Shown: positions 7,081 through 48,879 of the stretch, one piece after another
How the letters are laid out: the number at the start of each line of letters is the position of its first letter
Position numbering within the stretch: position 1 is the stretch's first letter
Assembly: GCA_951406725.2 (NCBI GenBank)
Contig: OX597832.1
Location: 49,910,001-49,974,000 of the forward strand
Reading direction: 5' to 3'
DNA: 64,000 bases
Origin: Octopus vulgaris
Taxonomy: Eukaryota
Notes under the pieces: generated by a model
The model's database searches: none
The model's input: the letters and a program-made list of their open reading frames with translations, nothing else
What the model was told of the DNA's origin: nothing
Translations under genes and position numbers: made by a program

Positions 7081-9981
7081 CTGGGTAAAAAATGAAACAA
7101 TAACAAGACATATATTTCCATTTGAAACATTAAGGTTTCAACATAACCCCGTCCAGATTAGTGCTAGGAAATTAGATTGCTCATGTGTGTATATATATCG
7201 TCATCGTTTAACATCCACTTTCCATGCTCCGAAAACTCATTACATTCATGTGTGTATATATATATATATATATATACATATGAATACATACACATTTAAC
7301 ACATGCATTACACATACATACATACTAGCATTTACACACACACACATCGTCAGTAGTTCATGTATCTGAAACTGAAGTACATTCTAAAGCGTTAGAGCAG
7401 TAATGTATTTTTAGGAAGTAAAAAGTTATGACTGGTTCTAGAGTAACCATTGGTTTCGCACCCATAAAGTACTTAACAGTATAGGGAACTCATATATATA
7501 TATCATCATCATCATCATTTAACGTCTGCTTTCCATGCTAGCATGGGTTGGATGATTTGACTGAGGACTGGAAAACCAGATGGCCGCACCAGGCTCCAAT
7601 TTGATCTGGCAGTGTTTCTGCAGCTGGATGTCCTTCCTAGTGCCAACCACACTCCGAGAGTGTTGTGGGTGCTTTTACATGCCACCAGCACGAGGGCCAG
7701 TCAGGCAGTACTGTCAATGGCCATGCTCAAATGGTGTTTTTTACGTGCCAGCTGCACAGGAGCCAGTCCAGCAGCACTGGCAACAACCTCACTCGAATGC
7801 TTTTTCACATGCCACTGGCATGAGCCAGTAAGGCAACGCTGGTAACGATCACGCTCGAATGGTGCTTTTTACATGCAACCGGCACGGAAGCCAGTTTGCT
7901 GCTCTGACAAAGATCACGCTTGGATGGTGCTCTTAGTGCTCCACTAGCATGGATGCCAGTCATCGAATTTGATTTCGATGAGATATATGTGTATACAAAT
8001 ATATGTGTATATCACCAGTAGTTCATATATCCAAAAAGGAAACATACTCTAAAACATTAGAGCAGTAATATATATATTTTTTTAGGAAGTTAAAAGTTAT
8101 GGCTGGCCATAGAGTGACCATTGGTCTTGGACCTATAAAGTGCTTAGCAGTATAGGCGACTCATCAGACTCAAAAGGCTGAAGGCTCATAACTTCCCTAG
8201 AAAGGAGAAAGAAATATTTAATAGTCATGAAAAAAACATCCAGCACACTCTGTAAAGTGGTTGGTCATATATTTCCTCTGCAGTAAAGGGACCAGTTCTA
8301 GATCCTCTCACATACTTTAACCTTCTCATCACCCAGCATAAAACCACCTCCCTCAATACTACACCCCACTACTCAGTTGTGGGGTTCTGTCTTGTGAGTT
8401 ACTTGGTGACATCACCAGTGCTGGTGCCATGAAAAAAGTACCCAGTATGCTCTGTAAAGTGGTTGGTATTGGGAAGGACATCATCATCATCGTTTAGTGT
8501 CCGCTTTCCATTCTAGCATGGGTTGGACGGTTCAACTGGGGGTCTGGGAAGCCAGAAGGCTGCACCAGGCCCAGTCTGATCTGGCAATGTTTCTACAGCT
8601 GGATGCCCTTCCTAACGCCAACCACTCCGTGAGCGTAGTGGGTGCTTTTTACGTGCCAGACGAGGCTGGCAAACGGCCACAATCGGATGGTGCTTTTTAC
8701 GTGCCACCGGTACAGAGGCCAGTCGGGGCGGCGCTGGCAACGGCCATGTTCGGATGGTTCTCTTACATGCCACCGGCTGTAGAAATCATGTCAACGCAAA
8801 CACTAGAGCTTGGTGTAATTTTTCTGGCTTATCAGTTACGGTTGAATCGTCCAACCCATGTCAGCATGGAAAAGGGACATTAAATGATGAAGATGATGAT
8901 GCTGATGTACAAACTATCATCATCATTGTTTTAATGTCCACCTTTCCATACTTGCATGGGCTGGATGGAATTTGTTGAGGTGGACTTTTATGACCAGATG
9001 TTCTTCCTGTCACCAGTTCACATCCAATCACCAGAGTTAAGCAATATCAAGCCTCGTCAATACTTAGATGGGTGACTTCTTGGGAAGCCTAGGTACTGTA
9101 AACAGCTCACAATTGTCCAACCCATGCCAGCATGGACAATGGACATTAAATGACAATGATGATGATGATGATGATATGTCTATATATTTCAGTTTCTTAT
9201 TTCTTTATTGCCCACAAGGGGCTAAACATAGAGGGTACAAACAAGGACAGACAAAGGGATTAAGTCGATTACATCGACCCCAGTGCGTAACTGGTACTTA
9301 ATTTATCAACCCCAAAAGGATGAAAGACAAAGACGACCTCTGCAGAATTTGAACTCAGAGCGTAAAGACAGACGAAATACCACTAAGCATTTTGCCCGGC
9401 ATGCTAACGTTTCATATTTCTTTATTACCCACAAGGGGCTAAACAAGGACAGACAAAGGGATTAAGTCGATTACATTGACCCCCCAGTGCATAACTGGTA
9501 CTTAATTTATCGACCCTGAAAAGATGAAATACAAAGTCGACCTCAGAGCGTAAAAACAGACGAAATACCGCTAAACATTTCGCTAATGTTTCTGCCAGCT
9601 CGCCACCTTTCAGTTTCTGTCCACCAAATCCACTCACAAGGCTCTTGTTCACTTGGTGCTATAGGAAACGACACTCGCCCAAGGTGCCATGCAATGGAAC
9701 TAAACCCAGAATCATATGGCCGGGACGCAAACTTTGTACCACACAGCCATGCCTGTGTGACCACACTCACACACACACGCCTCTCAGTCTTACCCAGGTC
9801 TGTCGCCAGATTTTAGTGCCTGGGGGTGTTTCAGAATATTCTGGATGAGCACTAATTTGCAATAATGCTAAAGTGGAGTTTCAAAATAAGGGTATCACTG
9901 TAAATCTGAGGGTGCACCATTGAATACTGATGGGGGCAGTACTGTCCGGTGCAACCCCTTAGTGAAGGGCATGGGTCTTAC

Positions 9982-15351: not shown

Positions 15352-15905
15352 CATCCGCTTTCCATGCTAGCATGGGTTGGACGGTTCAACTGGGCTCTGG
15401 GAAGCCAGAAAGCTGCACCAGGCCCTGTCTGATTTGGCAATGTTTCTACGGCTGGATGCCCTTCGTAACGCCAACCACTCCGAGAGTGTAGTGGGTGCTT
15501 TTTACGTGCCACCGGCACAGGTGCTAGACGAGGCTGGCAAACGGCCACGATCGGATGGTGCTTTTCATGTGCCACTGACACAGGTGCCAGACGAGGCTGG
15601 CAAACGGCCACGATCGGATGGTGCTTTTTATGTGCCACTGACACAGGTGCCAGACGAGGCTGGCAAACGGCCACGATCGGATGGTGCTTTTTATGTGCCA
15701 CTGACACAGGTGCCAGACGAGGCTGGTAAACGGCCACGATCGGATGGTGCTTTTCACGTGCCACTGACACAGGTGCCAGACGAGGCTGGTAAACAGCCAC
15801 GATCGGCTGGTGCTTTTTACGTGCCACCGGCACGGGGGCCAGGCGAGGCTGGCAACGGCCACAATCGGATGGTGCTTTTTACGTGCCACCGGCACGGAGG
15901 CCAGT
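15352..15905 (-). mobile_element. 5'-truncated copy of the same RTE 3' UTR with a 60-bp minisatellite
   Basis: About 6 units with an exact 60-bp period. Other copies lie at about 7503-7978, 8480-8775, 10966-11184, 12590-12960, 13272-13495, 21415-21657, 32765-33040, 48145-48610, 55765-56335 and 59475-59960. Confidence 0.75.
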
Positions 15906-16056
15906 CGAGACAAACAAAATGCCACTAAGCATTTTGGCCAACATGCTAACTATTCCGCTGGCTCACTGCTTTTTCCCCAAATATAAATAGTAAAGTTTTG
16001 CAGTGAAAACAATTTAGACAACAATCTTAAGTTAATGAAGCTGAAATATATCTTAC

Positions 16057-16301: not shown

Positions 16302-16588
16302 AGAAATATCAAATTTCTAAATATCTCATAGAGATATGTACGGTGGTGGAGCGATAGAGTGGTTGTATACTGTCAACTTAACGTGACAGTCCTGTAAGGG
16401 AATTACACCACCACTGTTTAGCCCTAGGAAGCATCGACGCTTCCTGTCGGCCTTGACACATTTCCTGTGTCCTTATATATTTACGAAGGGGAGACAAATA
16501 CCCCCAACAGCTAGGCCTGCATCTAGGGACATGCATGTTTCTGGGTCTTGCCCATCATCAGTCTAGAGTAGCAGAGACCTGCTAGCTG
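16302..16588 (-). mobile_element. Non-autonomous hammerhead-bearing Penelope-like/retrozyme-like element, family P1
   Basis: About 290 nt, homologous to 36664-37032. Contains the hammerhead. Lies in the intron upstream of ARH exon 3. Confidence 0.7.
16508..16588 (-). ncRNA. Type I hammerhead ribozyme (near-intact core)
   Basis: The minus strand reads cagctag-caggtct-ctgc-tac-tctaga CTGATGA tggg-caaga-ccca GAAA catg-catg TC cctaga-t-gcag-gc-ctagctg. It has the full catalytic core, stem II, a palindromic stem III and an extended stem I, with one A/C mismatch at the first stem I pair. Confidence 0.85.
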
Positions 16589-36630: not shown

Positions 36631-36663
<33 letters not shown>

Positions 36664-36664
<1 letters not shown>

Positions 36665-37092
36665 TAGAATGGTTGTATACTGTCAATCTAACACGAACGT
36701 GACAGTAGGGGGGTACACCACCGCTGTATAGCCCTAGGAAGCATCGACACCTCCTGATGGCTTTGACACATTTTTCCCTGTGTCCTTATATACATTTACG
36801 AAGGGGAGACAAACACCCCCGGCCGCCGGAGCTGCATCTAGGGACACGTGTTTCAGGATCATTGTCCTTCTTCGGCCTAGAGTAGCAGACACCGGTCAGC
36901 TGGTGATATTTGTCTCGACTTCGTATTGTATATATCTATAATTCAGTGAAGTCTATTCACTGATTATCAAAATAAGAAATACTAAATTTCTAAATCTCTT
37001 GTAGAGACATGTACGGTGGTGGGGCGATAGAATCTATCGCCCCACCACCGTACATGTCTCTACGAGAGATTTAGAAATTTAGTATTTCTTAT
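36664..37092 (-). mobile_element. Family P1 element: full 363-nt monomer plus a 60-bp inverted arm, flanked by (TA)n
   Basis: atagaa recurs at 36664 and 37027. Palindrome 36972-37092 is centred on 37032. Internal hammerhead. Confidence 0.75.
36806..36916 (-). ncRNA. Type I hammerhead ribozyme, second copy (core CCGAAGA, U4 to C)
   Basis: The minus strand reads tctagg CCGAAGA agga-caatga-tcct GAAA cacgtg TC cctaga. Stem I extends out to gagacaaatatc/ggtgtttgtctc. Homologous to the 16.5-kb copy, with compensatory changes in stems II and III. Confidence 0.8.
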
Positions 37093-37094
37093 AT

Positions 37095-37495
37095 ATATTA
37101 ATAGTTATCGCCAAACTAATATGGCAGTCCATAAATATAAGACTAAAGCTGTCGCTGATTAGCTCCAAGAGGCCATCGCCTCTAGCTAGCTATATGACAC
37201 ACAAACCTGCGTCCATTACAACCTTCGAACAGGGCAACAACCCTGAAACATGTCTGCAGATGTCTGACCAGCAAGGTGAAGCGGCTGACCTCCCCTGTTC
37301 GAAGGTTGTAATGGACGCAGGTTCGTGTGTCATATAGCTAGCTAGAGGCGATGGCCTCTTGGAGCTAATCAGCGACAACTTCAGTCTTATATTTATGGAC
37401 TGTCATATTAGTTTGGCGATAACTATTAATATCCAGTAACGCTGCCGTAATCTCCTTTAGAGAGACTTAGTAATTTTAATATTTCTATTATATAT
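37095..37495 (+). mobile_element. Related Penelope-like element, family P2, with 140-bp inverted arms
   Basis: Arms 37095-37234 and 37293-37432 are near-identical inverted copies, and the spacer holds a half hammerhead. The 3' end (ccgtaatctcctttagagagacttagtaattttaatatttct) resembles the P1 end. Confidence 0.65.
37231..37259 (+). ncRNA. 3' half of a hammerhead ribozyme, truncated by an inversion junction
   Basis: aggg-caacaa-ccct GAAA catg TC tgcag gives stem II, GAAA, a palindromic stem III and UC. The CUGANGA box is replaced by the inverted arm. Confidence 0.6.
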
Positions 37496-46705: not shown

Positions 46706-48879
46706 GTCTAAGTATATATATCTATGCTTTAGGTTTACGCTGATGAAAGACATGGAGTTTATTATATTCCTAATCTAGAAACGCGTTCGTAAATAACCAT
46801 TAGACTTTGCCTTTGTTATTTCTTCCTTCTGTTTTGCATATGTAAATTACAGGGATATGTCGTATGTGGAGTCTCATTTGTAGAAAATAGAAATAAACAG
46901 TCTTTGACTGCTATTTCTAATTTTTCGGGATGTGGCTAAGCAACCTGTTGCTTGCCTCTTTTATTTATATACATTATTGGAGGAAAGCTAGTTATATATT
47001 ATCTTAAATAACTTGGTGTTGTACAATAATATATAGGTATTAAAGCAATTATAAAGAATATAAACTGAACATTTTACTGTTGAGTGACTCTAGACTGATA
47101 GTAGAGTCAAGAGTCGATTTGATCTTCACATACACACTAATAGTTGTTTTTATGTGGAGTTATGTACAAAAACAATTTAACATTAAACCAAAAGATCACT
47201 CAATACATTTTAGTCGAGTATATACAGAGCTGGATTAAGACCCATATAGATGCCCCAAGCACTTAAAAGATTTTGGTGTCCCTCCATATAAGTCTGGGAC
47301 ATTTACCTCCCCACCCCAAAGAACAATTACCCCTGACGACAACAAATGATGATTTAAAACTTAATATATTAGAGAGGGGGTAGTTGTCGTCGGTGGGGGG
47401 GATTGTTCTATGGGGTGGGGGTAATTGTCCTGATATGCTCCATATTTATGTAATTCAAAATATAAACAATAATAAACTATTAAATAAATTTTTATTTTTC
47501 AAAATGAAACAAAGCTAACAGTAAGATGGAAAATAATGTTTAATTTTTGTATACTTCCACTTATATTTGTAAAGTTTTCTCTTTTTAATTGCAAAGTCTG
47601 TGACCAGATCCTCACTACGACAACGAACACTTTAAAATTATATTTCCAATCATAATTCGAATATTATTTTAGCAAATTTAAGGTGATTTCTTTCGTACCA
47701 TAAACCATTTACCATTTCTGTGGAGCCCTATATCCCTTGATGCACTAAGCACGTGTTTGTTTTGCTAAATGGTTAATACAGCATTGAATATATAAATAAA
47801 TATCTTACAAGGAAAAAATTAAAGAAGTTTTCATCACTGGATGTAAGGGAAACAACTGTGTTGGTACAGATATTATTTGTGGTTAAATCGAAGGCAGATA
47901 TTTATCTTAGCGGAATAAAGGACTAAACTTTTATCTTCGAATCCTTTATACAGCTTTGCTGTTGTTAAGCAACAAGACGGGTAAGGGTGATAGTCTAGGG
48001 CTTAGGGGCGGGAGACCCCAGACCTTGGAAAAAAAAAAAACTTTGGTCATCTTGTAGTTGAGGGATCTTCCTTGACGCCCGACACCACTGGGAGGTGGTC
48101 CTCGAAGTCTCTGGAAATGGAGATCTCCAGGTCCAAATTCTTGCAGCCAGGAGGCTGCACCAGGATCCAGTTTGATCCGGCAGTGTTTCTACAGCTGGAT
48201 GCTCTTCCTAACGCCAACCACTCCGTGAGTGTAGTGGGTGCTTTTTACGTCCCACAAGAGGCTGGCAAACAGCCACGATCGGGTGGTGCTTTTTACGTGC
48301 CACCAGCACAGGGGCCAGAGAAAACTGGCAAACGACCACGAATGGTTGGTGCTTTTTACGTGTCACCGGTATGGACACCAGTCTAGGCGGCGCTGGCATC
48401 AGCCACGTTCGGATGGTGCATTTTACGTGCCACCGGCACGGGTATCACAGCTATAATTTCCATTTGATTTTTATTTTGATGTTGATGTAATTGACTCAAT
48501 AGGTCTCCTCAAGCACAGCAGGTCACCCTACGATCCAAGGTTAGCACAGCAGGCCGTCCTGCGAGCCATGAACTCATTTCATTTGTCGGGTTTTCGCAGT
48601 CACAGCATATATTAGTATAAATTGTTACATGTATGACTTTTTACACGCTACTGGCATAGGACCAGTCAGGCGGCACTGGCATCAACCACACTTGAATGGT
48701 GCTTTTTACGTGCTACTGGCACGAATATATATATATATATACATACATACACACGAGTGAGTGGACAAACGAAAGAAGGGCACTCAACCAATTTTTTGGG
48801 AGTTACATTTATGGATCCATATGAAGAATGTGAGCACCCTGAGAGTAAAGTAGGACATAAGAAGCATTAAATGTGGTGT

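Follow-up and report, generated by a model that had tools for sequence, protein, structure and literature searches.

The insertion at positions 36664–37092 of the window (the whole 64,000-nt stretch of Octopus vulgaris DNA that was analysed) belongs to a repeat family, here named F1, that is very probably a non-LTR retrozyme, i.e. a non-autonomous Penelope-like element (PLE). Its non-coding 363-nt unit carries a hammerhead motif and has two fixed 3′ ends, named E1 and E2; we consider it likely that this unit is a non-autonomous PLE, probably copied from circular RNA. Insertion of the PLE type is likely because hundreds of copies were found, mostly in TA runs and with nearly all ends at two fixed points. 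An earlier sequence-only reading of this DNA had called the repeat a non-LTR retrozyme mobilised by PLEs, an assignment that is well supported: the E1 and E2 ends, the inverted pairs and the (TA)n targets all match PLE marks.

The 363-nt unit, its hammerhead motif and its relatives

A 29-mer located near one end of the unit had 466 exact matches in the genome (2.8 Gb in 227 contigs), and a 30-mer from the hammerhead had 69. The reversed controls had none, indicating a repeat family and not a chance resemblance. Among the 40 candidates scored out of 2152 found in a first pass, near-full-length matches were 95–100% identical to the unit. The inspection of 164 loci yielded 145 distinct insertions with 232 arms, a set that covers part of the family only and leaves out one locus-edge cluster; mean divergence from the column majority was 2.4%. 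A sample anchored on the 29-mer, drawn from the first 100 of its 466 matches, contained 76 insertions. The duplication, flank, fold-back, haplotype-multimer and crossing counts given below rest on sets of 135 or 72 insertions.

In the window, the segment at 36664–37032 is 369 nt long including a 6-nt terminal repeat, which upholds the 363-nt period first proposed for it. Its extent had been set too small, however, as the insertion continues to 37092 as an inverted 60-nt arm (98%). Arm 1 (36664–37033, minus strand) spans one full 363-nt unit and a further 7 nt; it terminates 3′ at 36664, in an end of type E1 that adjoins a (TA)n target run (36636–36663). Arm 2 (37033–37092, plus strand) consists of 5 nt plus a 55-nt tail and has its 3′ end, of type E2, at 37092. 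An internal copy of this tail, between sites E1 and E2, lies at 36972–37026 (minus strand), and the two arms form a near-perfect palindrome (98.3% identity). The last bases of the (TA)n run recur to the right of arm 2, likely representing, on the basis of a loose search with no chance control, a target-site duplication of ∼8 bp or more. The F1 element therefore probably landed at the left end of a neighbouring insertion of another family, N (37095–37491), which occupies the same TA site.

A type I hammerhead motif was identified at 36835–36883 (minus strand) from a descriptor scan, folds, variants and covariation. The 5′ strand of stem I (36881–36876) is followed by the core CCGAAGA (36875–36869), stem II (36868–36855), GAAA, a short palindromic stem III and the GUC triplet. 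The core has a C at position 4 (the U4C variant), the family majority being CCGAUGA. Self-cleavage and ligation are predicted, from the hammerhead consensus, at 36842–36843 (minus strand), 179 nt upstream of E1. The segment 36664–37032 is thus not a cleavage-defined monomer: the predicted cut falls mid-unit, 179 nt inside, while the copy ends elsewhere. Its length of one unit is incidental, with only five of the 232 arms measuring 355–373 nt. The claims that the unit lacks an ORF and that each copy has a single hammerhead both held, the longest Met-ORF of the circularised unit being 42 aa on either strand, and a descriptor scan that covered the entire window in both orientations finding exactly two type I hammerheads, one per copy and each on the minus strand. 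A plus-strand candidate near 36960 was rejected, as it has no closing stem I and the descriptor scan found none there. Rfam detected neither of the window hammerheads, at the gathering score or at E values up to 10, and the matches it returned in the insertion were rejected as hairpin artefacts of the palindrome.

The circularised monomer has a predicted folding energy of −126.7 kcal/mol (z = −8.0 against 60 shuffles), the predicted fold being a rod that carries the hammerhead as its cap and branches at the opposite end. The antisense strand of the unit also folds well (z = −5.7).

The other window hammerhead (16520–16569) has a canonical CUGAUGA core and lies in a 5′-truncated copy at 16302–16588 (minus strand) that ends at E2. 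This copy was correctly said to read through the junction: it runs over unit positions 312–368 and then 1–239 without a break (87.7% and 78.9% identity). It does not, however, share one unit with the copy at 36664, but belongs to a sister family, F2 (84% unit identity). The view that the two copies are circular permutations of each other therefore stands only in that the junction is crossed unbroken; the permutation is not free, the 3′ ends sitting at two fixed sites. Nor do the two copies in themselves give evidence of a permuted circle, since what separates them is an optional 55-nt PLE-type tail; this tail, with the inverted-repeat signature and two fixed 3′ sites, explains the apparent permutation.

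Family N has a 362-nt unit, 65% identical, with a U3–A8 hammerhead core. Its insertion in the window consists of a minus-strand arm that ends at E1 (37095–37234) and a plus-strand arm that ends at E2 (37231–37491). Unit length is thus 363 nt in F1, 364 nt in F2 and 362 nt in N, and in N the predicted cut has the same offset. In sequence, the tail of F1 resembles that of N (p = 0.001). More diverged N-like subfamilies (∼82% to N) were seen beside F1 insertions at loci L208 and L220, and retrozyme copies often share one TA site.

In 14 natural copies from these three related lineages, at 65–84% identity and with the structure drawn from one of them, two-sided changes were seen in 17 of the 51 named pairs, and the share of paired cells was 91.6%, as against 33–47% with slid partners. 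The compensatory changes include hammerhead stems I and II and the helix spanning E1; the tail hairpin did not align across families. The cores are CCGAUGA or CCGACGA in F1, CUGAUGA or CCGAUGA in F2, and UUGAUAA (U3–A8) in N, U3–A8 being a core covariation described for PLEs in a section of PMC4209133. The weakening of the F1 core by U4C is a point against an active hammerhead; according to the relevant part of PMC3088659, this change considerably lowers activity in vitro yet allows viroid infectivity. Additional type I hammerhead families, unrelated to these, also have C at core position 4 (CCGACGA, CCGAAGA); they were seen at several GIY-YIG loci, L035 and L071 among them, and U4C may therefore be widespread in the O. 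vulgaris genome.

Elsewhere in the window, positions 8986–9104 resemble 5S rRNA, scoring 43.7 bits (above the gathering score) but with many broken pairs, and are likely a pseudogene or part of a SINE. Arrays of a 63-nt tandem repeat, with open frames on both strands, are present at 15431–15918 and 48222–48436.

Insertion ends and paired arms

The sequence-only reading had suggested plotting the start and end points of the copies and their tandem arrays. On the hammerhead strand, the 3′ ends of 207 of the 232 arms fell on two fixed sites that lie 55 nt from each other (105 on E1, 102 on E2), and a TA-like run adjoined 148 of these 207 ends. The 5′ ends were scattered, giving arms of 24–827 nt (median 216 nt), 48 of them longer than 373 nt. 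Tandem copies reached 2.3 units in F1, with none longer seen; in N, arrays reached ∼2.8 units elsewhere in the genome (L150), again with none longer. Duplications of 8–14 bp flanked about ten insertions located away from microsatellites, as judged in a loose search with no chance control. Clusters of 5′ truncations occur at sense unit positions s146–152 and s225–244; these lie immediately upstream of the hammerhead core, where first and second passes alike are affected, and at the branched domain's base.

More than half of the insertions (79/145) were inverted pairs with both 3′ ends facing outward. In all 62 F1 pairs in which both ends could be classified, one arm ended at E1 and the other at E2, and the same combination was found in 36 of 36 pairs in the sample anchored near E1; in the remaining 17 of the 79 pairs one end was unclassifiable. 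The window insertion obeys this one-of-each rule, with E1 at 36664 and E2 at 37092. In the sister families, pairs of the type E2 plus E2 broke the rule: one of nine in family N (L146) and at least one in F2 (L095), both in query-biased samples. Arm lengths within inverted pairs were uncorrelated. Simple folding back, which would make either arm a subset of its partner, was rejected on these data: the longer reach belonged to the E1 arm in 29 pairs and to the E2 arm in 21, with both equal in three.

Palindromic insertions in TA runs can resemble MITEs, and one might think of a satellite monomer or a MITE spread at the DNA level, with the hammerhead as a passenger. The copies, however, bear the marks of retrotransposition: their 3′ ends are fixed while the 5′ ends scatter, the two arms differ in length and the centre varies. 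Moreover, no array exceeded ∼2.3 units in F1 or 2.8 units in N. We regard this explanation as hardly tenable.

The template and the source of tandem units

In the 29-mer-anchored sample, 45 arms reached the predicted cut site; 41 passed it and four stopped within 10 nt, a stop rate no higher than that in neighbouring bins. Of 44 crossings of the cut site, 42 showed no indel at the junction and two had deletions. The cleaved linear monomer is therefore not the usual template, as most arms pass the cut site without stalling or indels. Ten of 191 arms crossed the site twice, and that at L004, for instance, has two hammerheads as a result.

At subfamily-diagnostic sites, discordance between tandem units of one arm was 9/204. 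Between the two arms of one insertion it was 19/430, as against 31% between insertions; this low value makes it likely that both arms derive from one template or one source. Several haplotypes were each present as homogeneous multimers. Since tandem units share subfamily alleles and haplotype multimers are homogeneous, the genomic copies suggest that multimers are likely rebuilt from one monomer. A ligated circle most simply accounts for both the read-through and the homogeneous multimers, and the balance of evidence tilts towards a circular RNA as the template. The unit was covered by contigs from four runs guessed to be RNA, and three of the contigs listed bridge the cut site; several loose ends in these contigs enter TA runs or unrelated flank, and contigs of this kind look the same whether they come from a circle, a read-through transcript or DNA, so they speak neither for nor against a circle.

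The same element and PLE machinery might instead have used a linear transcript that reads through a tandem copy and stays uncleaved, the hammerhead being slow or dispensable and homogeneous multimers arising through a PLE strand-transfer step that rebuilds pseudo-LTRs. Scar-free read-through fits this scheme equally well, as does the U4C core of F1, and an autonomous element of the same genome (PLE-A, see below) also carries upstream partial tandems of ∼500 nt. Moreover, in a PLE insertion assay in vitro, hammerhead mutations were without effect, showing the ribozyme to be unneeded there, and unprocessed RNA was the main substrate (PMC11167929). A linear template would nevertheless require a separate means of spreading new subfamily alleles into every unit. 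It also sits poorly with the scattering of 5′ ends, which show no pile-up marking the start of a master copy, and with the flanks, no unique 5′ flank being shared among 60 single-orientation insertions; one insertion pair did have flanks that were 80% similar, which were interpreted as a different repeat present twice. The hammerhead stems and the closing rod, finally, are kept, with compensatory changes, in three families. Overall, a linear template appears unlikely.

With a circular template, the process might run as follows. A tandem copy would be transcribed on the hammerhead strand; successive hammerheads are predicted to release a monomer, and a host ligase would then join its ends to give a circle of rod-and-branch shape. 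A PLE protein with RT and GIY-YIG domains, acting in trans, may then cut both strands of an AT-rich or (TA)n target. Reverse transcription would begin inside the RNA, which would account for the observed ends at E1 and E2; where both target strands prime, each would take a different one of the two sites. The last step can be seen in the copies: they run past the cut site and beyond one unit and stop at scattered points, their 5′ ends being joined head to head or to the target. In its most specific form the proposal is that one 363-nt circular RNA is copied twice per insertion by a dimeric Penelope RT, the nicked target strands priming at E1 and E2, each enzyme rolling through the ligated junction and the resulting copies being joined head to head. 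We put this form forward tentatively, as a possibility that is less likely than not. If true, the genome would record concerted, two-primer, rolling-circle target-primed reverse transcription on a viroid-sized RNA that is recognised by its shape and not by its sequence.

Penelope-like elements of the genome and known retrozymes

Two autonomous PLE lineages of the same genome were compared with F1. PLE-A is young, with many intact 765-aa ORFs coding for RT and GIY-YIG domains (median pairwise difference 0.4%) and a CX2-5CxxC linker of the Neptune/Nematis type. Of its 15 copies, ten end in (TA)n without a tail, four have a 35-nt tail and one was not anchored. PLE-D is older (∼6% pairwise); among 30 copies, 14 have a tail of 55–58 nt, nine have none and seven were not anchored. 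Like F1, these PLEs thus end in (TA)n and may or may not carry a tail. At the PLE-A loci L061–L073, L079 and L080 (e.g. L064:2174–4468), a hammerhead-like U3–A8 core with a poor stem I lies ∼85 nt before the 3′ end. In PLE-D (L291–L320), ∼280–320 nt past the ORF, a hammerhead-like motif with a palindromic stem III and an apparent A3–U8 replacing C3–G8 was noted by eye. A PLE-like ORF fragment at L076:3408–4409 contains a GIY-YIG domain and gives a weak, below-cutoff match to Parvo_NS1 (E = 0.004), probably by chance.

It had also been proposed to look for a Penelope RT/GIY-YIG element sharing the 3′ end of the unit. None emerged among the 50–56 GIY-YIG loci covered or in PLE-A and PLE-D: alignment tests found no similarity between the unit and the ends of these two elements (p = 0.4–1.0), BLAST of the unit against 50 GIY-YIG loci gave no partner PLE of similar sequence, and neither did a scan of 56 such loci for the tail motif or a search for a tail-plus-ATG pattern. 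The F1 copies could derive from an autonomous PLE lying beyond these searches, either as truncated ends of its pseudo-LTRs or as by-products of internal deletion; the searches scored 150 of 6136 GIY-YIG candidates and covered a part of the PLE clades, and all the insertion features are generic to PLEs. However, arms that extend upstream enter another unit and never an ORF (41 arms run past the previous E1 site into another unit, in the 135-insertion set), and unit length is conserved at 65% identity. On whether the copies are pseudo-LTR fragments, the outcome favoured the original proposal: none of the 145 insertions continues from a PLE ORF, and read-through arms and tandems do exist. An RT plus GIY-YIG ORF between pseudo-LTRs, as in an autonomous PLE, is absent from the unit and was not joined to it in these insertions. 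PLE ORF fragments were present at six of the 145 loci, none joined to the unit as a terminal repeat; they were separated from it by TA runs or other sequence, wrongly placed, or interrupted by the insertion. We therefore consider a pseudo-LTR origin very unlikely and retain the interpretation of F1 as a non-autonomous element.

Title and abstract openings yielded no paper on a cephalopod retrozyme or on a two-site end rule; this search was confined to papers, with supplements and repeat databases outside its scope, and the F1 family may already be catalogued. For the giant squid genome, a passage of PMC6962438 counts 235 hammerhead matches. In their main account, Cervera & de la Pena 2020 (PMC7229834) describe non-LTR retrozymes, together with the corresponding circular RNAs, from coral, mussel and axolotl, and propose that PLEs mobilise them. 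Vertebrate retrozymes have been linked to pseudo-LTRs (Li, Clavereau & Pollet 2026, bioRxiv 10.64898/2026.07.22.740005), and no more than one of nine Xenopus retrozyme dimers was cleaved in vitro (same reference), which counts against the proposed circle. F1 agrees with the metazoan non-LTR retrozymes, as characterised in parts of PMC7229834, in its non-coding unit within 150–450 nt (∼350–390 nt in mussel), one type I hammerhead per unit with a short palindromic stem III, a stable self-paired fold, the lack of LTRs and the coexistence with PLEs. It differs in that its copies are dispersed, 5′-truncated and short (median arm 216 nt, at most 2.3 units) instead of forming long arrays, and in its core, with U4C in F1 and U3–A8 in family N. 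Further, circular RNA has been demonstrated for metazoan retrozymes, as PMC7229834 sets out in part, whereas the F1 family is known here from genomic copies. Their mobilisation by PLEs was inferred, in the portions of those papers that deal with it, from co-occurrence, shared hammerheads and pLTR homology; here, the ends and the inverted anatomy have been mapped. The plant-type LTR retrozyme, with a type III hammerhead in its LTRs and a 4-bp target duplication, is unlike F1, the hammerhead of which is of type I and the ends and duplications of which are PLE-like.

The tail of PLEs corresponds to the stretch that separates two start sites of the RT within the RNA, and in vitro both strands of the target are cut and then extended by a purified PLE protein (PMC11167929); the tail is found on one of the inverted pLTR repeats, as stated in passages of PMC3846280 and of Craig et al. 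F1 shares with EN+ PLEs, as these are presented in sections of PMC11167929, PMC3846280, PMC8557442 and PMC4209133, an optional tail between two RT starts, 5′ truncation, partial tandems, head-to-head inverted copies with the tail on one end, palindromic junctions, target duplications of ∼8–14 bp, a (TA)n bias and a hammerhead upstream of the 3′ end. By the same sources the usual PLE tail measures 30–40 nt, as against 55–59 nt here. Unlike EN+ PLEs, F1 has no ORF, its unit repeats on itself and it shows no similarity to the PLEs tested here. F1 resembles non-autonomous Chlamys elements such as MRC1 in being non-autonomous, of PLE type and inserted as head-to-tail multicopies; as described in parts of PMC8557442, however, those elements generally share 3′ sequence with autonomous families and most are without hammerheads, whereas F1 has one.

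How PLEs build tandem and inverted repeats is called unresolved in passages of the literature on PLEs and retrozymes. The anatomy of the F1 insertions links retrozymes to the PLE mechanism through two fixed starts, one-of-each pairs, matched haplotypes in the two arms and scar-free passage through the ribozyme. The family also offers a minimal substrate of 363 nt and three natural structural variants, alongside intact, young PLE ORFs in the same genome, materials that would allow a circular template to be tested directly against a linear one, and one template against two, in the existing in vitro assay. Among known systems, F1 is best placed with the non-LTR retrozyme/non-autonomous PLE kind, as a new member in which the anatomy of the insertions is unusually clear.
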